A DNA stretch of 38,421 bases. It comes from a virus. Taxonomy: Duplodnaviria > Heunggongvirae > Uroviricota > Caudoviricetes. The position numbers were made by a program, and so were the translations under genes. The first letter of the stretch is position 1, and each line of letters begins with the position of its first letter. Location of the stretch: positions 1 through 38,421 of IMG/VR virus record IMGVR_UViG_2703718837_000008; one strand, written 5' to 3'. Shown one piece after another: positions 2,142 to 21,910 of this stretch. The notes beneath the pieces were generated by a model. The model did no database searches and was not told the DNA's origin. It saw only the letters and a program-made list of their open reading frames with translations.

Positions 2142-4613
2142 TTAAAAATCAGCCTGACTCGGGATCAGTTTTTGCCAGATAGCTGAAACGTATTTTGCCT
2201 GGTAACGAGCGTCATCAAGTGCATTATGGCGCTCACCTTCGAATGGGATAGCAGTTCTGGCATCGAAGTCTATGGCTTTCCCCAGCTCAACGATTGTGCG
2301 TACATCGCGATCGTTGTAGTAACGCCACGGGCAGGGGATCCCCTGCCGTTCGTATGAACGGCGCAAAATCGTGTTGTCGAAGTTGGCTCCATTTCCCCAG
2401 ACCTGAACAAAAAACTCACCGGAGTTTTCGTCGATAAATTCCCGCAATTGCAGTAGTGCATCATCTAACGGGATTTCATCGGTCATAATGGCAGACTGCG
2501 CTTCACGTGATTGCTTTAGCCACCATTTAATGACGTCACGATCAATGACTCCGCCAGCAGTATCCAGATCGATGGTCTTGCTAAATTCCGGTCCCATATC
2601 TCCGGTTTGTGGATCGAAAAATATTGCGCCTATTGAGATAATCGGGGCATCGGGATTTTTTCCCATGGTTTCAAGGTCGATCATCAGATGAATCCCCGCT
2701 CTGCTGGTGGATGTTAGATTATGACGACCGTTCGCCTTAATTAAGGGATCTGACGCCTCGCCAGTTTCGCTATCGCTGGCATGATGCTGATTGCCGCCAG
2801 TGTTCTCCTTGTGCTGATGTGCAGTACCTTCCATTTCCTCCGGATCATTTTCCTGAACTTCAGGCTGATTCTCTTCATCGAATATTTCCTGGTATGTTGC
2901 GTCACCCATCACCGCACCACAATCAGGGCAACTACCGCCGCCGCTCTGACCGCAGGCGGTGCAGGCTTTTTCCGGCTCCTGTTGCGCTACTGGTTCAACC
3001 TGTTTCGTTTCTGGCTCGTTTTGTTGCGCATTTGGGCTGTTTTGTTCCGTTTTCTGGTCGTTCTGTTCCGATTCTTGCTGGTTCTGGTTTACAGAATCGC
3101 GGGTTTCAATCCCCTTCACCCATTTCGGATCATTCGGGTCGCTAATCCCTGCAACAAATTCTCCGCGAGAGGCAGCAAGCAACTTATCGGCGTCAGGCTG
3201 GCTGATATTGGCTGCCTGCATAATTTTGTTTACTTCGTCAGCGGTAACTTTTACCGGCTCTGGTTGTGCGATCGTGTCAGATGCACCAGTATTTTGTTGT
3301 GAACCTGAGTATGTGCCGTTTTTGCGGGCAAAATATTCTTCTTTCGTGATTTCAGTAGCCCCTGCAGCCAGCGCCTTATTCAGACCAGAAAGTTTGTTTG
3401 CACGACCATATTTTTCGCCATCCTTATCGGTGAAAAGGAAGTAGAACGGCCCCTCACGCTCTACAGATGGTTCAGTTTCCAGCGTGCTTTCATTTTTTTG
3501 AGTATCAGATACTTCAGTTTCCACTGCATCAGTTTGTGCTGCTGACGGCTGGAGAATATCAGCAGTGTTCTGGTCTGTTTCTTCATCCTCAAATACGCCC
3601 TTTGTCGCCAGGTATTCAGTGATGTATTTGTTCAGTGCTACGGGATCTTTGTGAATGTCGATCGGACGCTCACGGACAAGGCCAAAAATAGTCTGGCGGT
3701 CGTAGCGAAGGGCATCAGGCTGTTTGCGCATTGATGCCGAGATACGCTTCCAGTCTTCGCGGTCGTTGTCGATAACTTCATTTTTTGCCCAGCGATGGAT
3801 GCTGCCGTCAATGTTTCCGGTATCCACATCACCAGGCCAGAGAGCGTAGGCCAGTTCGTCATCCAGTGTTTTCCATGTCTGCTTGTATTCGCGATGAATG
3901 GCAGCAATGACCTGGCTGATTTTTCCTGTTGAATTTTCAGCGTGCTGTTGATTGGCTCTGGCGCGGGCGAGATCAACAACAGACGTGTATTTTCCGGTTT
4001 CCTTGCGTTCACCTTCGCGACGTTTTTTCCAGATGCGCATCTCTGCCTGAATTTCGGGCCATTTGGCACCAGGCTTACATTTATGCTTAACCCACCCGAT
4101 GGCATGCAGCTTAAGCTCCGGATACATGGCGTTAACTTCTGGCATTTTCATCAACGCTTCAACGATATGTCCGTCGAATGTTGCCATGTCTTCCTGCAAC
4201 AGTTCCTGCGCGCTAATCACCATATCAACGGTGATGTTTTCACATGTGTCGAACTTAACCATGACAGCGTTCTGTACTTCAGGGGCCAGCTTGTCAAAAG
4301 TGACGTTCATCGGATCTGATTCAGTCTCAACCGGGACAAAGGAAGCAGACTCCTCATCCCAGCGGTTTTCCTGCATATATTCAGCATCCCAGGAATCGAG
4401 GGCAGGGCGGGGTATACCGGGTTTATCCTCGCAGACAAGAAATTTATAAGCGCAGTCCTGAGCAGCCGGATATTGCTCCAGGAATTGCCAGGTAAATTTG
4501 GCACGGGCGCGGCGTTCGTCACCGGCTTCAATGGCAGTGGCTACAGCAACTGCACCTTCTTCCTTTATTGCCTGTTCGTCCGGAATGGCGGCGCAAATAA
4601 AGACTTTACTCAT
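2142..4613 (-). CDS. Exodeoxyribonuclease VIII-like protein with C-terminal DEDDh (DnaQ-like) 3'-5' exonuclease domain
   Basis: 823 aa. Central acidic/Gln-rich linker and a segment (KLLAASRGEFVAGISDPNDPKWVKG) that I recall from RecE-like prophage proteins. The C-terminal ~180 aa carries DnaQ-like motifs (MIDLETMG ... H.A..DA). No recT-like partner seen. Confidence 0.6.
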   Translation of the reverse strand: MSKVFICAAIPDEQAIKEEGAVAVATAIEAGDERRARAKFTWQFLEQYPAAQDCAYKFLVCEDKPGIPRPALDSWDAEYMQENRWDEESASFVPVETESDPMNVTFDKLAPEVQNAVMVKFDTCENITVDMVISAQELLQEDMATFDGHIVEALMKMPEVNAMYPELKLHAIGWVKHKCKPGAKWPEIQAEMRIWKKRREGERKETGKYTSVVDLARARANQQHAENSTGKISQVIAAIHREYKQTWKTLDDELAYALWPGDVDTGNIDGSIHRWAKNEVIDNDREDWKRISASMRKQPDALRYDRQTIFGLVRERPIDIHKDPVALNKYITEYLATKGVFEDEETDQNTADILQPSAAQTDAVETEVSDTQKNESTLETEPSVEREGPFYFLFTDKDGEKYGRANKLSGLNKALAAGATEITKEEYFARKNGTYSGSQQNTGASDTIAQPEPVKVTADEVNKIMQAANISQPDADKLLAASRGEFVAGISDPNDPKWVKGIETRDSVNQNQQESEQNDQKTEQNSPNAQQNEPETKQVEPVAQQEPEKACTACGQSGGGSCPDCGAVMGDATYQEIFDEENQPEVQENDPEEMEGTAHQHKENTGGNQHHASDSETGEASDPLIKANGRHNLTSTSRAGIHLMIDLETMGKNPDAPIISIGAIFFDPQTGDMGPEFSKTIDLDTAGGVIDRDVIKWWLKQSREAQSAIMTDEIPLDDALLQLREFIDENSGEFFVQVWGNGANFDNTILRRSYERQGIPCPWRYYNDRDVRTIVELGKAIDFDARTAIPFEGERHNALDDARYQAKYVSAIWQKLIPSQADF

Positions 4614-4896: not shown

Positions 4897-5081
4897 TGCC
4901 AGCATCCTTTTTGCATCGGGCGTAAACGTGCCAGTATTGAAAGAATGCATATTTTATTTAATAGCTCTCGTTCGTGTTTTCTCTTATTAATGGCATCTTC
5001 AGTAAATGCAGGGTTACTGATTTTGACACCAATTTCAAAACAACCTTCAGACGTATTAACGTTTGGTAATAACGTTTCCAT
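4893..5081 (-). CDS. dicB: Cell division inhibitor DicB
   Basis: 62-aa product METLLPNVNTSEGCFEIGVKISNPAFTEDAINKRKHERELLNKICILSILARLRPMQKGCWQ is near-identical to my recollection of K-12 DicB (62 aa). The ORF track extends it upstream, but the conserved length and the DicF spacing support the internal start at 5081. Confidence 0.85.
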   Translation of the reverse strand: METLLPNVNTSEGCFEIGVKISNPAFTEDAINKRKHERELLNKICILSILARLRPMQKGCWQ

Positions 5082-5250
5082 TATCGCGTCCTCAACAATG
5101 AATTTTGTGATGCGGTGCCTGGTGCCTCCAGGTGACGTTAACCAGTTAACAATTAACGCCGGATACAGAGAATCCACCCGTAACACTGTTTTTAGCTTTA
5201 ACTGTTCCGCGTGCGCTGAGCCGCATTCACCGCATCACAAAATTCACTTT

Positions 5251-5308
5251 AAAAAGGGCGGCAGAGCAGTCGCGGAGTAAAACTGATACCGCCAAACGCC
5301 ACCAGAAA
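5251..5308 (-). ncRNA. dicF: DicF small RNA (ftsZ-targeting sRNA)
   Basis: Minus-strand sequence TTTCTGGTGGCGTTTGGCGGTATCAGTTTTACTCCGCGACTGCTCTGCCGCCCTTTTT matches the K-12 DicF sequence as I recall it (1-2 substitutions), ending in a T-run. Lies ~170 nt upstream of dicB, as in Qin. Ends are approximate. Confidence 0.75.
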
Positions 5309-5577
5309 ATTGATAACAGAGGGCGTTGCAGCGGGGTTGTCACTTAAGCGTATGGTCAACCTGACAACCCGGTGTCCTCAACGGGGAAGGAATAACCCCG
5401 CCATACTTACCGCCGCGCCATTTCGCGGAGTGCCACAACCGGAAGCGCACGGTCGACGAAAATTTAACGACAGGCTATCTATAAACCAGCTACCTCGCCG
5501 TACGCTTTCGCGTTGTGTGCCTGCTTTTAACCACGTCAGGCGAGGTGGTTCCTGTTATTCCCCAACAACAAGAAATT

Positions 5578-5585
5578 TGTATAAT
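5578..5585 (+). promoter_or_regulatory. Extended -10 promoter (TGtTATAAT) for the downstream + strand ORF
   Basis: TG at 5578-5579 followed by TATAAT at 5580-5585. Flanked by two 17-nt direct repeats TCCCCAACAAC(A/G)AGAA at 5559-5575 and 5593-5609. GAGAAGA RBS at 5604-5610 precedes a GTG start at 5620. Confidence 0.4.
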
Positions 5586-5619
5586 CCGGATATCCCCAAC
5601 AACGAGAAGAGTACTCAAC

Positions 5620-6075
5620 GTGATAGCAGAACTGTCAGCGGCTATGGCTGCGATAAAGGAGACAGCTGGTCTCGCTAAGGTTATTAATGACGCAAAAACG
5701 GATGCAGAAGTTAAAGCCGCAACTATTGAACTTCAGAACAAACTAATCACGCTTCAGGCGGAATGCTTCTCTCTTTGCGATGCGATCCGCTTTCGTGATG
5801 AAGAGATAATGCATCTCAAAGCAAAAATTGCAGAGACAGAAGATTTTCAGCGACAGGCGGAAGGTTACAAGCTTAACAAGCTTGATTCTGGAACCCTTGT
5901 ATATTCCAAGAAGCAATTTATAGGCGATACTGAGATAACTGTGCATCTTTGCCCACAATGTTTTGGAAAAAAGGCAATATCTGTACTTCAGCCAATGGAA
6001 ATAATGCGCTTTGATGCTCATTTTCGTACTTTTTGCCCCGCTTGCAATAATAAGTTCTGGATGAACTCAAGATAA
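5620..6075 (+). CDS. Hypothetical protein: N-terminal coiled-coil plus C-terminal C4 zinc ribbon
   Basis: ~152 aa from GTG 5620 (ATG at 5644 is an alternative). Heptad-like N-terminus (AAIKETAGLAKVINDAKTDAEVKAATIELQNKLITLQAE...). C-terminus has CPQC...(22 aa)...CPAC. Convergent to the dicB operon and sits in an insertion relative to the K-12 ydfC-dicF junction. Confidence 0.5.
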   Translation: MIAELSAAMAAIKETAGLAKVINDAKTDAEVKAATIELQNKLITLQAECFSLCDAIRFRDEEIMHLKAKIAETEDFQRQAEGYKLNKLDSGTLVYSKKQFIGDTEITVHLCPQCFGKKAISVLQPMEIMRFDAHFRTFCPACNNKFWMNSR

Positions 6076-6210
6076 TTAACCGTTTAAATAAGTTGGGACT
6101 ATCCAGATTTTTAAAGAACGTACCGGATGCTCACCCGTGTCCGGCGCACGCACTCCACCTCACCCGTGGAGAACTCCTTAATTACCAACCTTAGCTTCGT
6201 TGGTTAGCTA

Positions 6211-6429
6211 TTAACGCGGGTATGTAATCATTCTGGCAATGCTTAATGTCGCTGCTTTTTCCAGCCTGGTGATATCCTGCTCCAGAGCGGACAGATTTTC
6301 AGCCTGCTTAGCCCTGGCTTCATTGGCCCATTTCAGATCCTGCGCTGCATTAATTTTCTGGCGCATCCACTCATAAAGTTCATCATCGGTATAGTCTGGC
6401 GCGATGATGACGGGTTCTCGTTTCTGCAT
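6211..6429 (-). CDS. ydfC: YdfC-like small protein
   Basis: 72 aa, same length and position as Qin ydfC (dicA-ydfA-ydfB-ydfC-dicF-dicB order). Assignment is mainly by synteny. Confidence 0.5.
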   Translation of the reverse strand: MQKREPVIIAPDYTDDELYEWMRQKINAAQDLKWANEARAKQAENLSALEQDITRLEKAATLSIARMITYPR

Positions 6430-6458
6430 ACTGATTCCTCGCGGTGCTGTTTCGCTTA

Positions 6459-6587
6459 TCAGCCGTTAGATTTTGCCGAACTGGAAAGCGCCTGTTTAAA
6501 TTCGCTGAAGCTGAGAGTTTCTTCGCCTTCGGCAAGGCCTTCGAAGTATTCTTCGTAAGCCTTTTTCATGATTGTGTCGAAATCCAT
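6459..6587 (-). CDS. ydfB: YdfB-like small protein (42 aa)
   Basis: Not in the ORF track (below its length cutoff). Reverse-strand ORF MDFDTIMKKAYEEYFEGLAEGEETLSFSEFKQALSSSAKSNG with a GGTGAG RBS; its ATG lies 1 nt after the ydfA stop. Matches the 42-aa ydfB size of Qin. Confidence 0.5.
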   Translation of the reverse strand: MDFDTIMKKAYEEYFEGLAEGEETLSFSEFKQALSSSAKSNG

Positions 6588-6926: not shown

Positions 6927-6967
6927 ATGATACCCATGGGTATTCAAAAAGTAAATACCCATGGGTA
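6927..6967 (-). promoter_or_regulatory. Predicted promoter of the ydfABC-dicF-dicB operon with two identical 12-bp palindromic operators
   Basis: Perfect palindrome TACCCATGGGTA at 6931-6942 and again at 6956-6967 (25 bp centre to centre). On the minus strand a TTTACT(-35)-17-TATCAT(-10) promoter (plus coordinates 6950-6955 and 6927-6932) overlaps them. Confidence 0.5.
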
Positions 6968-7009
6968 AATTTTTGAAGTATCTTGACTGGTGACTGGTTG
7001 TTTGGTGAG

Positions 7010-7429
7010 TTATGATGCGTTTTGTGCTTTCTTTTTACGGATTTCTTCGTAGATCATATTGTAATACTGTTTTTTCTCTTCAAGAGTTTTTAATAAGTTA
7101 TCCGCTTCACTTTCAGGCAGTTCGTCTAAGAGATCTAAAAAAATACGTTGTCGTGGCGTTAGAACCCTTGTTTCATAATTGGAGGCTGTGTTCGTTGATG
7201 ATGAAACGATACCATCCATCCATCCCCGGGGTAACCCAAAGGACTCTTCTATAATCTCCACCATATCATCAGCGATCCGTTTTTTTCCTTTTTTCCCCTC
7301 TGGGTACAACATTCTTGATACATAAGAAGGCTCGCGACCGATCTTTCTGGCCACGTTAACCGCTTTACCATCGCATTTCTCATCACGAATTTTGATGAGT
7401 TGTTGTCGTCTAAATTCATATTTGTCCAT
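7010..7429 (-). CDS. DicA/CI-like HTH (XRE family) repressor
   Basis: 139 aa from the internal Met at 7429 (MDKYEFRRQQLIKIRDEK...). HTH segment VNVARKIGREPSYVSRML. C-terminus (LTPRQRIFLDLLDELPESEADNLL...) resembles DicA as I recall it. Divergent from a Cro-like gene. The longer ORF-track start at 7471 would run into the operator region. Confidence 0.7.
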   Translation of the reverse strand: MDKYEFRRQQLIKIRDEKCDGKAVNVARKIGREPSYVSRMLYPEGKKGKKRIADDMVEIIEESFGLPRGWMDGIVSSSTNTASNYETRVLTPRQRIFLDLLDELPESEADNLLKTLEEKKQYYNMIYEEIRKKKAQNAS

Positions 7430-7449
7430 AGGTAAATAATAGATGCGAT

Positions 7450-7504
7450 TACCGCAAGGTAAACAACCCAAGGGTATTGACTTTTGTTTACCTGTGGGTA
7501 TTCT
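7450..7504. promoter_or_regulatory. Divergent immunity-switch control region: three TACC-N4-GGTA operators and a rightward promoter
   Basis: TACCGCAAGGTA (7450-7461), AACCCAAGGGTA (7465-7476), TACCTGTGGGTA (7489-7500). TTGACT (7477-7482)-16-TATTCT (7499-7504) reads toward the Cro-like gene, with the third operator overlapping the -10. Confidence 0.55.
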
Positions 7505-7530
7505 TTTGCTGTGTTTACTAAGGAGTAGCT

Positions 7531-7812
7531 ATGGAAGAATTAAGAATATTTCTCAATTCTCTTTCGTCAGATGAACAGCGTATGTTTGCATGTGAGTGTG
7601 GTACTAGCATCGGTTATCTAAGAAAGGCATTGAGTAAAGGTCAAATGTTAGGGGCATCGTTATGTGTCCTTATTGAGCGAGCCAGTAATGGTGAAGTTAC
7701 ACGTCAGCAACTAAGGCCTTTTGATTGGATGAAGATTTGGCCCGAGCTGGAAGATACCAAAACGTTAACACAACCACTTACTAGGAGCTTGATTCATGAA
7801 AATCAAGCATGA
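7531..7812 (+). CDS. Cro/YdaS-like HTH regulator
   Basis: 93 aa. AGGAG RBS. Motif IERASNGEVTRQQLRPFDWMKIWPEL is typical of YdaS/Cro-like prophage regulators. Divergent from the repressor. Confidence 0.65.
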   Translation: MEELRIFLNSLSSDEQRMFACECGTSIGYLRKALSKGQMLGASLCVLIERASNGEVTRQQLRPFDWMKIWPELEDTKTLTQPLTRSLIHENQA

Positions 7813-9833: not shown

Positions 9834-12092
9834 ATGAAACCAGAATACTTAAGAAAAATAGAATCATTGCAACGTGAGGTTGATGATTTCCATCCAGTGC
9901 TAAGAGCGCTTCTACCACGTTTGCCGACTGTTACACATGTTGAATATAAGCAAGGACCATCAGAAAAAGGTGCTGATTTTGTCATAATTAAACGAGATGA
10001 GGCATTAGACGAGGAAATATATATTGGTGTTATTTGTAAAGTTGGAAAGATAATTCAGTCAAATAGTGAGGTTGAACGACAAATAGAAGAGTGTCAATTA
10101 TATCCACGCTTTATTTCTTCTGGCTCTAAGAACATACATTTGAATGAAATTTGGGTTATTACTAATTCATCGATCTCAAATAATGCTCAAGAAAAAATTT
10201 ACTTGAAATTCAAATCTACAAATATAAAATTTATAGAGGGTGAAAAAATATGTTCTTTAATCAGTAAATATTACCCAGAGTTTTGGGATTTCGAATCCAT
10301 TAATTATGAACAATACTTAACAGATACATTGCAAACCATAAGTGATACACCTGAAAGTTCTTTTTTTGGTAGTGTTGGCATAAATAACCTTATTGATAGA
10401 TATGTAAGCAAGGAGGATCATAAAAAACGCAGACACAGGCCGTTAAAACTGTATAGTGTTGTGAGAGCCGAGAGATTTATTTTTTTAGAGGGAACCGTTG
10501 GCTCTGGGAAAAGTACTTTGCTGAAACAGTTAATTAGAAAAATAAAAGAAGAATATTCTTACGAAAAAGACTACATCCTTCCAGTATTTTGTCAATACAA
10601 GGATGTTCTAGAAAAAAAACTTAATGTTGAAAATATAATACAAAGTGTGTTAAGTAAGTACAAAATACAACATGATGGGAATATTTTATTAATTGTTGAT
10701 TCGGTTGATGAAGTAAAGGAATCACTTGAGGAAAGGCAAAACAACTTCAGGGACATTGTAGAGAAAGTATCCAGGAATGATAAAGTTCGATTACTAGTTG
10801 CTTCAAGAATTATGGATTCTCTTCAGGACTATGAAGTTATCGATCAGATGTTTGCAAGATACTCGATAATACCACTTAGCACAGGTCAAATAATCGACTT
10901 TGTAGATAAAATCTGCAATGACATTAAAATAACAAATAAACTTAAAAATGGTATAGAAAAAACACCACTATTTAAGTTCATTCCCAGGACTCCAGTGAGC
11001 GCTATTCTTCTGGCAAGAATACTCTCTGATGAGATTAAAGAATTACCATCTACAATGACAGAACTATACTCAAAATACAGTGAGATAGTATTGGGACGAT
11101 GGGATACATCTAAGGGATTATTATCGCAAACAGAATATGATGTAATAAGTAATATATTAGTAGAAATTGCGATGTTTATGATGGATAACTCTCTAAACTG
11201 CATATCAATTTCAGAAGTGCAGGACATGTTTTTAAATTATTTGGCCAAAAGAAACTTGAATGTTGATGAGGACAAACTTTTCAAAAGACTAATTTATCGC
11301 AGTGAAGTAACAACAGTTAATGTTAGAAGTAATACGTTCTCATTTCTACACAGATCATTCATGGAGTATTTTTACGCTGAAGGACTTAGGAAGCGTGGCC
11401 TAATAGACATAAATGATAATATTTATGATATTTATTGGGCAAATAGTTATTTCTTCTATTTTGGTTTGTTACGAGACAATGAATATCTTATTGATAAAAT
11501 TAATGAACTTAAACCTAGTAACGATAAAACAAGATTTTTAAGGTTGTTTTATAACGGTTCTTTTTATTTGGCTTCATATCTAACTCCGTATAAAAAAATA
11601 ACGAGGGGAGTCCTTTTATCATATATAGATGCAGGTAAATTATATGTTGATATTCTCAAGGGAAATACCGACATCCCGCTGAAGGAATTTTCACCAGTAG
11701 CTCTTCTTTGTATTTTCACAAAGTGTTTAAGTAACAATTACGCATATGATTTTTTCAAATCTGCCTTGGAAGACTTGTCAGTTCAAATTGAACAATATGA
11801 GGAAATTGGTGAACATATTGATTATGCACGTTTCTTCATAGCATCAACACTGAATGAGCTCGGGGATAAATCCGCATTTGATAGCTTAGTGGAAAAAAAT
11901 AAATTAGGTGTTTTGATTAATTTAGGGATAACTCACGTTACAGACGACTCAGGACTACTTAGCACTACGGTTGATAAGTACCTGAAAAAATTCAATAAAA
12001 AAGTACGAAGTAACCATGATATGTCTAATTATATATCTAAGTTATATGAGGAATCTACAGGTTCCTTACGTACAAACCTGCAAATTCAATAA
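9834..12092 (+). CDS. NACHT-type STAND NTPase with N-terminal PD-(D/E)xK-like nuclease domain (bacterial NLR-like antiphage candidate)
   Basis: 752 aa. Walker A FLEGTVGSGKST (aa ~217-228). Walker B with NACHT signature ILLIVDSVDE (aa ~285-293). NACHT winged-helix motif SFLHRSFMEYFYAEG (aa ~502-516). N-terminal GADFVIIK...EIYIGVICK resembles an Mrr-like D...E.K nuclease core. Strongly AT-rich relative to the flanking phage genes, with its own promoter and a 13-bp stem hairpin after the stop. Confidence 0.7.
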   Translation: MKPEYLRKIESLQREVDDFHPVLRALLPRLPTVTHVEYKQGPSEKGADFVIIKRDEALDEEIYIGVICKVGKIIQSNSEVERQIEECQLYPRFISSGSKNIHLNEIWVITNSSISNNAQEKIYLKFKSTNIKFIEGEKICSLISKYYPEFWDFESINYEQYLTDTLQTISDTPESSFFGSVGINNLIDRYVSKEDHKKRRHRPLKLYSVVRAERFIFLEGTVGSGKSTLLKQLIRKIKEEYSYEKDYILPVFCQYKDVLEKKLNVENIIQSVLSKYKIQHDGNILLIVDSVDEVKESLEERQNNFRDIVEKVSRNDKVRLLVASRIMDSLQDYEVIDQMFARYSIIPLSTGQIIDFVDKICNDIKITNKLKNGIEKTPLFKFIPRTPVSAILLARILSDEIKELPSTMTELYSKYSEIVLGRWDTSKGLLSQTEYDVISNILVEIAMFMMDNSLNCISISEVQDMFLNYLAKRNLNVDEDKLFKRLIYRSEVTTVNVRSNTFSFLHRSFMEYFYAEGLRKRGLIDINDNIYDIYWANSYFFYFGLLRDNEYLIDKINELKPSNDKTRFLRLFYNGSFYLASYLTPYKKITRGVLLSYIDAGKLYVDILKGNTDIPLKEFSPVALLCIFTKCLSNNYAYDFFKSALEDLSVQIEQYEEIGEHIDYARFFIASTLNELGDKSAFDSLVEKNKLGVLINLGITHVTDDSGLLSTTVDKYLKKFNKKVRSNHDMSNYISKLYEESTGSLRTNLQIQ

Positions 12093-17737: not shown

Positions 17738-18088
17738 ATGCCATCACGAATCCCACGCGCCTGCCGTAAGCGTGGATGTGCAGGTACAACCACAGACAGT
17801 TCTGGTTACTGCGATAAACATCGTGGCGAAGGATGGGTACAGCATCAACGCGGACTGAGCCGCCACCAGCGTGGCTATGGCTCGAAATGGGATGCCATAC
17901 GTGCGCGCATACTGAAGCGTGATAATCATCTGTGTCAGAACTGCCTGCGCAATGGGAGAGCCGTTGAAGCCAGAACTGTGGACCACATCATTCCGAAAGC
18001 TCATGGTGGCACGGATGCAGACAGTAACCTGCAGAGTCTGTGCTGGCCCTGTCATAAAGCAAAAACAGCGCGCGAACGCATCAATTGA
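17738..18088 (+). CDS. HNH endonuclease (terminase-associated)
   Basis: 116 aa. Cys-rich N-terminus and HNH core (DHIIPKAHGGTDADSNLQSLCWPCH). Immediately upstream of the terminase small subunit. Confidence 0.8.
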   Translation: MPSRIPRACRKRGCAGTTTDSSGYCDKHRGEGWVQHQRGLSRHQRGYGSKWDAIRARILKRDNHLCQNCLRNGRAVEARTVDHIIPKAHGGTDADSNLQSLCWPCHKAKTARERIN

Positions 18089-18235: not shown

Positions 18236-18718
18236 ATGTCTGGACCCCCGAAAAACCCGCCACGCCTGCATTTGATACGAGGCAACCCCTCAAAGCGCCC
18301 CGTTAAAGACCTCAAAAAAACCGCTAAAAAGGATGAAAAAGGTCTCCCTAAAATTCCGCAACATTTAGGGGCACAGGGGAAGTACTGGTTCAGGCGAATG
18401 GCGGAAGAGTTGAATGCGGAAGGGATCATTTCTCAGCTCGATGCACGTGCGCTCGAGTTACTGGTGGAAGCCTACACCGAATACCGGCATCACTGCGAAA
18501 TACTCGATGTTGAGGGTTATACCTACCGCACGGAAACGCAGAATGGCGATGTGCTGATCAAGGCACACCCGGCTGCTGCGATGAAGGCTGATGCCTGGAA
18601 GCGGATCCGGGCGATGCTTGCAGAGTTTGGTATGTCACCGGCAAGCCGGGCGAAAGTAAATACCGCCGGACCGGATGATGTTGATCCGCTGGCAGAGCTT
18701 TTAAAAGCGAGAGACTGA
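18236..18718 (+). CDS. Terminase small subunit (P27-like family)
   Basis: 160 aa. Position and basic N-terminus consistent with P27-family TerS. Stop overlaps the TerL start. Confidence 0.7.
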   Translation: MSGPPKNPPRLHLIRGNPSKRPVKDLKKTAKKDEKGLPKIPQHLGAQGKYWFRRMAEELNAEGIISQLDARALELLVEAYTEYRHHCEILDVEGYTYRTETQNGDVLIKAHPAAAMKADAWKRIRAMLAEFGMSPASRAKVNTAGPDDVDPLAELLKARD

Positions 18719-20475
18719 TGGCAAAAGTGGCTGACGGGATCCGCTACGCCGAACGCGTTGTTGCAGGAGAAATTGTTGCTGGCGAATTTGTCCGTCTGGC
18801 CTGCCAGCGTTTTCTTGATGACCTGAAGTACGGCGAAGAGCGGGGGATTTATTTCAGTGAACCCCGTGCACAGCACATCCTGAATTTCTACAAATTTGTA
18901 CCCCATGTGAAAGGGGCGCTGGCAGGTCAGCCCATTGAGTTGATGGACTGGCATGTATTTATCCTCATTAATATTTTTGGTTTTGTTATTCCGCTGGTCA
19001 ATGAAGAGACCGGGGAAGTTGTCATGCGCAGCGATGGCAGCGGACGTCCGGTGATGGTGCGCCGGTTCCGGACGGCGTACAACGAAGTCGCCCGTAAAAA
19101 CGCAAAATCAACTCTGTCATCGGGTATCGGCCTGTATATGACGGGGGCAGATGGTGAAGGCGGAGCTGAGGTGTATTCAGCCGCAACCACGCGTGACCAG
19201 GCAAGAATCGTGTTTGAAGACGCCAAAAATATGGTCAGAAAAGCCCGGTCGACACTCGGGCGGTTGTTTGATTTCAACAAGCTGGCGATTTACCAGGAGC
19301 AGAGCGCATCAAAATTTGAACCGCTTTCTTCGGATGCAAACAACCTGGATGGTCTGAACATCCACTGCGCCATTATTGATGAGCTGCATGCACATAAAAC
19401 CCGTGACGTGTGGGACGTTCTGGAAACGGCAACCGGTGCCCGTCTGCAGTCCCTTTTATTTGGTATCACCACGGCAGGGTTTAACAAGGAAGGGATTTGT
19501 TACGAGCAGCGTGATTACGCCATCAAGGTATTGCGTGGCTATAACAGCGACGTGGAGGGCGCGGTAAAAGACGACTCCTACTTTGCGATTATTTACACCC
19601 TCGATGAGGGAGATGATCCGTTTGATGAAACGGTCTGGCAGAAAGCGAATCCCGGCCTGGGCATCTGTAAACGCTGGGATGATCTGCGTCGCCTGGCGAA
19701 AAAAGCGAAAGAACAGGTCTCTGCGCGGGTGAATTTTTTTACCAAACACATGAATGTGTGGGTAACAGCAGAGTCTGCCTGGATGGACATGATTAAGTGG
19801 GAGAAGTGCGAATACATTGCCCCACGACATGAGCTGAAAACGTATCCCATGTGGGTCGGCGTTGACCTTGCTCATAAGATTGATATCTGTGCGGCGGCAA
19901 AACTCTGGCGAACGGATAACGGGCATGTTCATGCCGATTTTAAATTCTGGCTTCCGGAAGGACGGCTGGAACGATGCTCGCGGCAGCAGGCAGAACTTTA
20001 CCGGAAGTGGGCGGAGATGGATAAGCTGATTCTGACGGATGGTGATGTTATCGATCATGCTCAGATAAAAAGTGACTTACTGGAATGGATTGGTGGTGAA
20101 AACCTCAGGGAACTGGGATTTGACCCGTGGAGCGCGATGCAGTTCAGCCTGGCACTGGCTGAAGAAGGGATACCGCTGGTGGAGGTTCCGCAGACGGTTC
20201 GCAATCTGTCAGAGGCCATGAAGGAAACGGAATCACTGGTCTATGCCGGGCGTTTCCATCACAGCAATCATCCGGTCATGAACTGGATGATGTCTAACGT
20301 TACGGTAAAACCGGACAAAAACGACAATATCTTCCCGAATAAATCCACGCTGGAAGCCAAAATCGACGGCCCTGTTGCGATGTTTACAGCAATGAGCCGG
20401 ATGCTGGTCAATGGTGGTGAACCGGAGCCGGATCTGTCTGAACATCTGGTCAGCGTGGGCATCCGCTCGCTTTAA
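18718..20475 (+). CDS. Terminase large subunit
   Basis: 585 aa. ATPase region followed by nuclease region; typical size and position between TerS and portal. Confidence 0.85.
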
Positions 20476-20486
20476 CCGAGGTCATT

Positions 20487-20669
20487 ATGTTTCTGATAAT
20501 TCTCGCGCCACTGGTGGGCGTGCTGGGTGCGCTTTTGCTGGCGTATGGTGCCTGGCTGATTTATCCCCCGGCGGGTTTTGTTGTTGCCGGGGTGCTGTGC
20601 CTGTTCTGGTCGTGGCTGGTGGCGCGATATCTCGATCGTACACAGCTGTCTGTCGGCGGAGGTAAATAG
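20487..20669 (+). CDS. Small hydrophobic membrane protein (hypothetical)
   Basis: 60 aa with two hydrophobic stretches, between terminase and portal. Confidence 0.35.
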
Positions 20670-21910
20670 TGTTCTTTTCGGGATTATTTCAACGAAAAAG
20701 TGACGCGCCGGTGACCACGCCAGCAGAGCTGGCGGATGCCATCGGGTTGTCCTACGACACCTATACCGGAAAGCAGATCAGCAGTCAGCGAGCCATGCGA
20801 CTGACGGCGGTTTTTTCCTGCGTCAGGGTGCTGGCAGAGTCGGTCGGGATGTTGCCCTGCAATCTGTATCACCTGAACGGCAGCCTGAAGCAGAGAGCCA
20901 CCGGCGAACGTCTGCATAAACTGATCTCCACGCATCCCAATGGCTATATGACGCCGCAGGAGTTCTGGGAGCTGGTGGTCACCTGTCTGTGCCTGAGGGG
21001 AAATTTTTACGCCTACAAAGTGAAAGCATTTGGCGAAGTGGCTGAACTGCTGCCCGTCGACCCCGGTTGTGTGGTACCGAAGCTTAACAGTAGCTGGGAA
21101 CCGGTTTACCAGGTCACATTCCCGGACGGCTCCACGGATGTACTGAGCCAGGAAGATATCTGGCATGTGCGCACGCTGACGCTGGACGGTCTGGTGGGAC
21201 TGAATCCCATCGCCTATGCCCGCGAGGCAATATCGCTGGCAGCAGCGACCGAAGAGCACGGGGCCAGACTGTTCAGCAATGGTGCGGTGACGTCCGGTGT
21301 GTTGCGTACAGAACAGACGCTGTCGGATCAGGCTTATGAGCGCCTGAAGAAAGATTTTGAGGAGCGTCACACCGGGCTTGGCAATGCTCACCGCCCGATG
21401 ATCCTTGAGATGGGGCTGGACTGGAAGTCGATGGCGCTGAACGCCGAGGACAGCCAGTTCCTGGAAACCCGCAAGTTTCAGCTTGAAGAAATCTGTCGTC
21501 TGTTCCGGGTGCCGTTGCACATGGTGCAGAACACCGATCGCGCCACCTTCAACAATATCGAAGAGCTGGGGCTGGGATTTATCAACTATTCACTGGTGCC
21601 GTATCTGACCCGCATCGAACAGCGGATCAACACCGGACTGGTACGAAAAAGTAAGCAGGGCGTTTATTACGCCAAATTTAACGCCGGGGCGTTACTGCGC
21701 GGGGATATGAAGTCCCGTTTTGAAGCCTACGCCACCGGGATCAACTGGGGAATTTACTCTCCCAATGACTGCCGCGACCTGGAAGATATGAATCCGCGTC
21801 CCGGTGGGGATGTCTATCTCACACCGATGAACATGACCACGAAACCATCCGATGGCAGTAAAGCCGGTAAGCAGAAGGATAACGCCAATGCAGACGAAAC
21901 AACGTCTTGA
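20669..21910 (+). CDS. Portal protein (HK97 family)
   Basis: 413 aa. GTG start preceded by GGAGG. Position after terminase. Confidence 0.8.
   Translation: MFFSGLFQRKSDAPVTTPAELADAIGLSYDTYTGKQISSQRAMRLTAVFSCVRVLAESVGMLPCNLYHLNGSLKQRATGERLHKLISTHPNGYMTPQEFWELVVTCLCLRGNFYAYKVKAFGEVAELLPVDPGCVVPKLNSSWEPVYQVTFPDGSTDVLSQEDIWHVRTLTLDGLVGLNPIAYAREAISLAAATEEHGARLFSNGAVTSGVLRTEQTLSDQAYERLKKDFEERHTGLGNAHRPMILEMGLDWKSMALNAEDSQFLETRKFQLEEICRLFRVPLHMVQNTDRATFNNIEELGLGFINYSLVPYLTRIEQRINTGLVRKSKQGVYYAKFNAGALLRGDMKSRFEAYATGINWGIYSPNDCRDLEDMNPRPGGDVYLTPMNMTTKPSDGSKAGKQKDNANADETTS

Follow-up and report, generated by a model that had tools for sequence, protein, structure and literature searches.

The DNA analyzed here, a window of 38,421 nucleotides (positions 1–38,421 of the IMG/VR record IMGVR_UViG_2703718837_000008; Caudoviricetes), is a complete lambdoid prophage with a dicB-type early-left operon on its minus strand. 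Between ydfC and dicF of this operon lies a gene on the opposite, plus strand, and this gene, together with the sequence in front of it, probably constitutes a prophage "moron" cassette that carries one gene and measures about 600 bp, in which a Rip1-family abortive-infection gene would be expressed in the lysogen and silenced by antisense transcription on induction. We observed the homology of the protein to Rip1, a shared fold, the boundaries of the cassette, the conservation of the block upstream of the gene, and a hairpin on the minus strand of this block.

The open reading frame (ORF) that forms the cargo was judged by its sequence conservation to be a genuine gene rather than a product of chance. 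Its close homologues number more than 150, with identities of 50–99% and all annotated as hypothetical, and were found in prophages of Escherichia, Klebsiella, Citrobacter, Enterobacter, Salmonella, Edwardsiella, Kosakonia, and other genera. The N-terminal sequence MIAELSAAM is kept across the homologues, and therefore the start was fixed at the GTG at 5620; a GTG start is present in all the distinct loci of the subfamily, and the only Met near the N-terminus, Met9, is not invariant. An earlier note on this DNA had described an oppositely oriented ORF of 152 aa at 5620–6075; the ORF, its strand, and its coordinates were correct, and the product has 151 residues, since the 152 codons include the stop. 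The automatic ORF list extends the gene upstream (5515–6075, plus strand, 186 aa from a GTG at 5515) and also places a 122-aa ORF (5310–5678, plus strand) over the conserved non-coding block. Database versions of 176–243 aa, such as that of PhiR29_1 (242 aa), appear to be over-extended likewise.

The product is a member of phrog_1244 (E = 3e-51). An exhaustive profile search retrieved 2,684 cluster representatives at E ≤ 1e-3, of which 903 also passed E ≤ 1e-10; nearly all are 145–175 aa long and match from end to end. A structure prediction, which the earlier note had proposed as a check, was obtained with AlphaFold (AF2) from 60 homologues (mean pLDDT 91.7). The model shows two helices (residues 2–24 and 28–79) that form a long hairpin, followed by a C-terminal beta-rich domain with a four-cysteine zinc ribbon, and overall it resembles a soluble coiled coil plus zinc ribbon. 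The N-terminal coiled coil and the CPQC...CPAC zinc ribbon that had been noticed in the sequence are thus borne out by the helix pair of the model and by the four cysteines (C111, C114, C139, and C142), which are invariant in the 60 homologues. When the model was compared with the PDB using Foldseek, the only significant matches were chains L and M of 9OOX (E = 8e-8 and 2e-7, probability 1.0), the next-best match having an E value of 0.27; for chain M the alignment (E = 1.8e-7) gave TM scores of 0.65/0.76 and an rmsd of 3.3 over 122 columns. This entry is the cryo-EM structure of Rip1 from Escherichia phage HK446 with the small terminase of Enterobacteria phage T6.

Sequence comparisons led to the same protein. 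The profile of the 60 homologues matched 9oox_L, "ring interacting pore 1 (Rip1)", with an E value of 1.3e-21 (residues 5–152 against 15–160 of 164), and BLASTP against HK446 gp37 gave 27% identity (E = 3e-16). The four cysteines align with the LCAQC...RCHRC of HK446 Rip1, which also falls in phrog_1244 (E = 2.2e-53), as does JBD30 gp30 (E = 2.7e-61). HK446 Rip1 and the product encoded in the window belong to the same length class (164 and 151 aa), are collinear over their full length, and share the hairpin and zinc-ribbon fold; both genes are lone antisense genes in a lambdoid early-left region with the same conserved boundary element upstream. They differ in the segment between the zinc knuckles, which is unrelated, in the start codon (ATG in HK446, GTG in the window), in the repeats of the promoter block (CCCCTACAG in HK446, CCCCAACAAC in the window), and in location, the HK446 gene lying between N and a ral-like gene. 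Judged from the sequences and the model, the cargo adds a new, divergent member to the Rip1 family of defence proteins, which is already known. No significant match for the product was obtained in Pfam, NCBIfam, or PADLOC, and none to the SieB family in Pfam (E ≤ 0.1) or PHROGs. The negative result with PADLOC is uninformative because PADLOC 2023 also fails to detect HK446 Rip1 itself.

In the literature, Rip1 is described as a prophage-encoded defence in which an 11-mer of terminase is capped by 12 Rip1 (PMC12908700), and as a sensor of the small terminase subunit (preprint, bioRxiv 10.64898/2026.04.30.721860). Within the subfamily of the window, residues 1–50 are about 80% identical, and residues 126–138, between the CxxC motifs, are just 11% conserved. 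This pattern of sequence variation fits a diversifying sensor surface, and the specificity determinant is likely to be the hypervariable loop that separates the CxxC knuckles. The same low conservation, together with the 27% identity to HK446 Rip1 and the size and diversity of the family, would also agree with a protein that has the Rip1 fold and another job, either superinfection exclusion at DNA entry or abortive infection triggered by a phage protein other than the small terminase; moreover, HkaP of HK620 carries the note "putative superinfection exclusion protein". That note, however, appears to be based on position and not on experiment, and the full-length collinear alignment, the conserved cysteine ligands, and the fold are those of Rip1. 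We therefore regard another job as unlikely, and the terminase-sensing function of Rip1 is the one adopted below.

The interval between ydfC and dicF measures 903 nt (5308–6210), in agreement with the roughly 900 bp reported earlier. In contrast, the corresponding gap in Qin of the K-12 chromosome is 341 nt and not about 65 nt, the value given in the earlier note. Alignment with Qin and related prophages, also suggested in the earlier note, revealed 96–97% identity between K-12 and the window over 5200–5528 and 6120–6450, with 29 unrelated nt between the two segments. Since the K-12 matches stop at 5528 and resume at 6120, the insertion comprises 591 bp, shorter than the 0.85 kb first estimated, and the remainder of the interval (5308–5528 and 6120–6210) is ordinary transcribed spacer of the dicB operon. 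In other prophages the homology of the cassette runs from about 5512–5516 to about 6117; thus, loci L003, L004, and L007 match from 5512–5516, and L007 does so again at 6093–6117.

The insert is not part of the core dicB operon (ydfABC-dicF-dicB-ydfD of Qin), being absent from K-12 and from most dicB operons. A match to part of the region was obtained in 4,595 of 5,426 complete E. coli genomes, and only 59 carry the full interval, defined as at least 80% of it. In an O111:H8 prophage and in phage Evi the same site holds another pair of small genes (L014 1643–2261; L015 1535–2153), namely a 135-aa phrog_1363 gene on the strand of the operon and a 77-aa phrog_10348 gene on the opposite strand. 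Therefore, the ydfC–dicF site behaves as a variable cargo slot, with at least three states: empty, occupied by a Rip1-like cassette, or occupied by the phrog_1363 and phrog_10348 pair. Separately, we observed that other dicB operons contain, just upstream of ydfC, a lone copy of the boundary element identical to 5518–5553 of the window (L016 1784–1820; L014 2525–2562; L101 1062–1262). This copy precedes a backwards small gene annotated as "ECs_2282 family putative zinc-binding protein" (MNTIKFSCPECGG...), an arrangement that looks like a second antisense slot; it is not present in the window.

The sequence upstream of the gene is more conserved than the protein. Where the proteins are 50–75% identical, a block of about 105 nt keeps a mean nucleotide identity of 82% to the window. 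The block consists of the boundary element, repeat 1, the −10 hexamer, repeat 2, and a short leader, an architecture shared by P22, lambda, HK446, HK620, and the window, with the repeats always 34 nt apart. The boundary element is nearly invariant in 32 loci and occurs in 146 phage records, lambda, P22, and HK620 among them; in these three it is 90–100% identical, and in lambda and P22 it lies just upstream of sieB. Its stem pairs are mostly invariant, with one AU-to-GC compensatory change, and on the plus strand RNAalifold predicted only an invariant 5-bp stem for this element, a second helix being 78% paired. The two repeats had been described as 17 nt long; they do flank the −10 hexamer, and they are of 16 nt with 15 matching positions. 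Similarly, the extended −10 promoter proposed earlier was right in that the hexamer is a perfect TATAAT (most loci have GTTAAT), and wrong in that the TG, at −14/−13, is one base off the extended register.

The resemblance to the sieB region of P22 and lambda extends to the transcripts. In the P22 record a sieB promoter is annotated, with the RNA starting on the base immediately 5′ of repeat 2; by alignment, the transcript of the window would therefore start at about 5592–5593, seven bases past TATAAT. Table 2 of a 2026 RNA-seq paper (PMC13397905) gives the sequence of the P22 antisense RNA sas, which corresponds base for base to the opposite strand of the P22 block and extends backwards from the start codon of sieB across the two repeats and the boundary element. 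Two reviews (PMC12197685, PMC7067206) state that sas diverts the sieB mRNA from the translation of SieB, and that SieB exclusion depends critically on this switch. The window and the sieB loci thus have in common the block of about 105 nt, with its boundary hairpin, the 34-nt-spaced repeats around the −10, and the transcript start at repeat 2; in both, the gene is antisense to the early-left operon and the minus strand of the block corresponds to sas. They differ in that the cargo of the window is unrelated to SieB, with no internal Esc-type product evident in the window, and in the sequence of the repeats, the hairpin being preserved by compensatory changes; moreover, the sas-like RNA of the window is a predicted one. 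A search of Rfam gave nothing over 5308–6210, nor over the sieB/sas locus of P22.

Two repeat types were distinguished. The P22 type, ACCCCTACAG, is found in P22, lambda, and HK446, and P22-type modules drive SieB (P22, lambda) or Rip1 (HK446, HK620). The cargo driven by the window type, CCCCAACAAC, is the Rip1-like subfamily or, in Shigella phage SfIV and phage Kati, an unrelated 144-aa phrog_5286 protein. The phrog_5286 gene of SfIV (gp36, L099 2001–2497) and that of Kati (L100) adjoin an S24-type repressor. In another locus (L070, about 3900–4000) a single copy of CCCCAACAAC was found, as if 34 nt including the −10 had been lost by recombination between the repeats.

A further element appears on the other side of the gene, where GTTGGGACTATCCAGATT, after the stop codon, is the inverted counterpart of AATCCGGATATCCCCAAC at the transcription start, with a core palindrome GGATATCC. 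In most loci an inverted copy of 14–18 nt stands directly past the stop codon and is followed by a rho-independent terminator. These inverted repeats could pair the 5′ and 3′ ends of the mRNA, or could mark a second antisense promoter. We considered them as transposon ends and rejected this interpretation, because the conservation continues about 70 nt past the left copy and through the terminator past the right copy.

On the minus strand of the block, RNAalifold (alignment A5) predicted a 9-bp hairpin whose GGGG loop is the complement of the CCCC of repeat 1; this hairpin was not predicted on the plus-strand alignment (A4). In an alignment of 32 sequences, those of P22, lambda, and HK446 among them, the helix is paired in 97.9% of the cells, with compensatory changes in four of its nine pairs. 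None of 500 shuffles reached the observed covariation, and slid controls were about 40% paired. Several of the pairs are G-U on the minus strand and A-C mismatches on the plus strand; therefore, the hairpin belongs to the sas-like strand. The hairpin also accounts for the concerted change of repeat 1 and its flank from one module type to the other. Given that the sequence of the arm and loop is a perfect antisense of the 5′ end of the mRNA (repeat 2), we suggest that the loop nucleates the pairing with the cargo mRNA.

The position of the repeats, over the −35 and the +1 and with a fixed spacing of 34 nt, would also suit operators for a DNA-binding regulator, either encoded by the host or the zinc-ribbon protein itself, in a block that is purely promoter and operator and gives no antisense RNA. 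The palindrome GGATATCC, which overlaps the start site and recurs past the stop codon, is compatible with this idea, and the earlier note had deduced a dedicated regulator from the repeats. However, the P22 repeat type serves both SieB (P22, lambda) and Rip1 (HK446), which are unrelated, and the window type serves the Rip1-like gene and phrog_5286 in SfIV. The repeats are therefore not operators for the cargo protein, and autoregulation by the zinc-ribbon protein was discarded on this basis. In addition, the hairpin that repeat 1 forms with its flank is supported by covariation and holds only when read on the minus strand, and in P22 an RNA with exactly the minus-strand sequence of the block has been detected (PMC13397905). 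A block devoted to operators is thus quite improbable, and the proposal of a dedicated regulator was probably wrong; repeat 1 is better understood as part of a hairpin of the sas-like RNA.

The genomic context of the homologues is consistent with an independent cargo. In the family members examined one by one, the gene is always a lone gene that faces against its neighbours. The hkaP gene of HK620 and HK630 lies between hkaQ/N and cIII, and in Edwardsiella and Kosakonia prophages the homologue is located between early-left genes and a cI-type repressor. HkaP has 30.6% identity to the cargo (tblastn, E = 2e-12) and is likewise a lone antisense gene; it differs in belonging to the HK446-type subfamily with the P22-type promoter block. 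The orf25/gp30 genes of Pseudomonas Mu-like phages (D3112, DMS3, JBD30, LPB1) share the PHROG and the lone antisense arrangement. They differ in their location, between a DNA-binding protein gene and the large terminase gene (JBD30 gp30 and LPB1 ORF25), and in their upstream sequence, which is GC-rich and without the sas-like block. Of 45 distinct IMG/VR loci, 26 have the gene flanked on either side by genes of the opposite strand, and in 39 the right neighbour, usually a repressor-sized ORF of about 210–230 aa, is oriented against it.

Position beside dicF is recurrent and in the minority, with dicF-side flanks in 12 of 80 related loci. In principle, as the earlier note had considered, the role of the backwards ORF and its promoter could be control of the dicB operon: transcription converging on the DicF/DicB precursor would tune the division inhibitors. 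The cassette is placed 208 nt upstream of DicF and inside the precursor transcript, and the dicF-flanked alleles are divergent (99%, about 70%, 59%, 56%, and 50% protein identity), which indicates that cassettes recur beside dicF-side sequence. Nevertheless, the other 68 loci lack the dicF flank and their commonest neighbour is a cI-type repressor, the same module drives sieB (P22, lambda) or rip1 (HK446, HK620) in phages without dicF, most E. coli dicB operons have no insert, and the dicB operon is repressed anyway in the lysogen. The cassette is of a general kind, and most of its copies are not next to dicF; regulation of DicF or DicB by it is for this reason very improbable, and the suggestion lacks support. 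The alternative also contemplated earlier, that the ORF is an independent cargo gene, agrees with a discrete module present in many other prophage contexts.

Returning to the Rip1-like abortive-infection cassette, we propose the following mechanism. The cassette is carried backwards in the transcribed ydfC–dicF spacer of the early-left (dicB) operon. In the lysogen, its own weak promoter, the GTG start, and a poor Shine–Dalgarno sequence would yield a low level of the Rip1-like protein, which, by homology with HK446 Rip1, would be inert until an infecting phage produced a ring of small terminase. Rip1 protomers would then assemble on the ring, and their N-terminal helices would form a membrane pore, aborting the infection. 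Upon induction, the derepressed dicB operon would be read through the cassette in antisense, generating a sas-like RNA. By pairing with the cargo mRNA at its 5′ end and start region, this RNA would shut it off, and in this way the prophage would avoid triggering its own Rip1. Such a self-immunity device would be needed since the prophage encodes its own small terminase (TerS). We infer the trigger, the pore formation, and the antisense shut-off. Convergent transcription, to which the earlier note had drawn attention, probably does matter, and it does so in the opposite sense: the operon transcript is antisense to the cargo and contains the sas-like RNA. As for P22, the primary paper on sas reportedly states that the switch lets the growing phage evade its own exclusion system.

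Several points weigh against this interpretation. The Rip1 mechanism applied here comes from the title of a PDB entry, a meeting report, and one citing sentence. Identity to the characterized Rip1 is only 27% and the inter-knuckle segment is unrelated to it, and therefore the trigger may not be the small terminase. The most hydrophobic stretch of the protein, an N-terminal 19-mer, is moderate in this respect (mean Kyte–Doolittle value about 1.0; 1.06) and gives a hint of pore formation but no proof. For the cargo promoter, no −35 element with at least four of six matches was found, a consensus scan of 5200–6500 returned no sigma-70 promoter and no terminator, and the terminator that follows the gene in most loci is missing in the window and in other dicB-operon insertions. 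Finally, an Esc-like second product was not evident, although no systematic search for one was made.

A broader proposal, which we put forward tentatively as a possibility with less than an even chance, is that the sas-type block is a portable self-immunity switch, reused in Enterobacterales prophages in front of unrelated killer or exclusion genes expressed in the lysogen (SieB, two Rip1 subfamilies, and phrog_5286). Here it would be driven by the dicB operon and would, on induction, silence a suicide protein that senses terminase and that would otherwise respond to the TerS of the prophage itself. The block would carry a promoter on one strand and an antisense RNA on the other, with the GGGG-loop hairpin mimicking the complement of the CCCC at the 5′ end of the mRNA, and the repeats would co-vary because the hairpin must recognize this 5′ end.

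The positions of the elements of the cassette, its flanks, and the principal genes of the prophage are compiled in the table.

Table. Coordinates in the 38,421-nt window of the cassette elements, the flanking genes, and the main prophage genes.
Feature	Position	Strand	Basis or remarks
Insertion relative to K-12 Qin	5529–6119		591 bp, in place of 29 nt; K-12 alignment
sas-like antisense-RNA and promoter block	5516–5622	−	homologous block upstream of sieB (P22, lambda) and rip1 (HK446, HK620)
Boundary element GCCTG..ACCAC..CAGGC..GTGGT	5518–5553		interleaved complementary segments; 3′ part of the sas-like RNA
Hairpin UCUUGUUGUU / GGGG loop / AAUAACAGGA	5550–5573	−	RNAalifold; plus strand is repeat 1 and its upstream flank
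Direct repeat 1, TCCCCAACAACAAGAA	5559–5574	+	over the −35 position
−10 hexamer TATAAT, cargo promoter	5580–5585	+	sequence position
Direct repeat 2, TCCCCAACAACGAGAA	5593–5608	+	inferred mRNA 5′ end
Rip1-family gene	5620–6075	+	GTG start, 151 aa; RefSeq hypothetical WP_000559912.1
3′ inverted repeat, GTTGGGACTATCCAGATT	6093–6110	+	complementary to AATCYGGATATCCCCAAC at 5586–5603
DicF sRNA gene	5256–5307	−	Rfam RF00039, 73.5 bits, E = 1.6e-15; flank, outside the insert
ydfC	6211–6429	−	RefSeq annotation of a 99.4% identical locus; flank, outside the insert
Integrase	724–1842	−
Exonuclease	2142–4613	−
Immunity region	near 7000–7800		replication and lysis genes after it
HNH endonuclease (packaging)	17738–18088
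TerS (the prophage's own small terminase)	18236–18718
TerL	18718–20475
Portal	20669–21910		tail genes and lom after it

DicB and the DUF1391/ydfA protein of the operon were identified in the window by Pfam. A sub-threshold Rfam match to STnc100 (5049–5258, minus strand; 36.1 bits against a gathering threshold of 47, E = 2e-5) spans the DicF–dicB spacer together with the first part of dicB. Two inverted copies of ATACCCATGGGTA occupy 6931–6967, between the early-left genes and a repressor-like ORF (7010–7471, minus strand); they probably serve as operators for the promoter of the dicB operon, and an Rfam match to mir-2041 at the same position is spurious. In the replication region, a NACHT/STAND NTPase of 752 aa (9834–12092, plus strand; Pfam NACHT and NCH1), for which PADLOC yields merely weak ATPase-level matches, is probably a second anti-phage cargo gene.

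Both the type of regulatory module (sieB/sas) and the Rip1 family are already known, and the cargo described here is a new divergent member of the latter at a slot of the dicB operon. The finding leaves present knowledge of DicF and DicB as it was. It provides a function-level hypothesis, terminase-sensing abortive infection, for a very common "hypothetical" prophage gene, whose family has thousands of representatives and whose present allele occupies this site in 59 complete E. coli genomes. It also links the new Rip1 family to the 30-year-old sieB/sas antisense switch, and suggests a testable route by which prophages may avoid their own terminase sensor.

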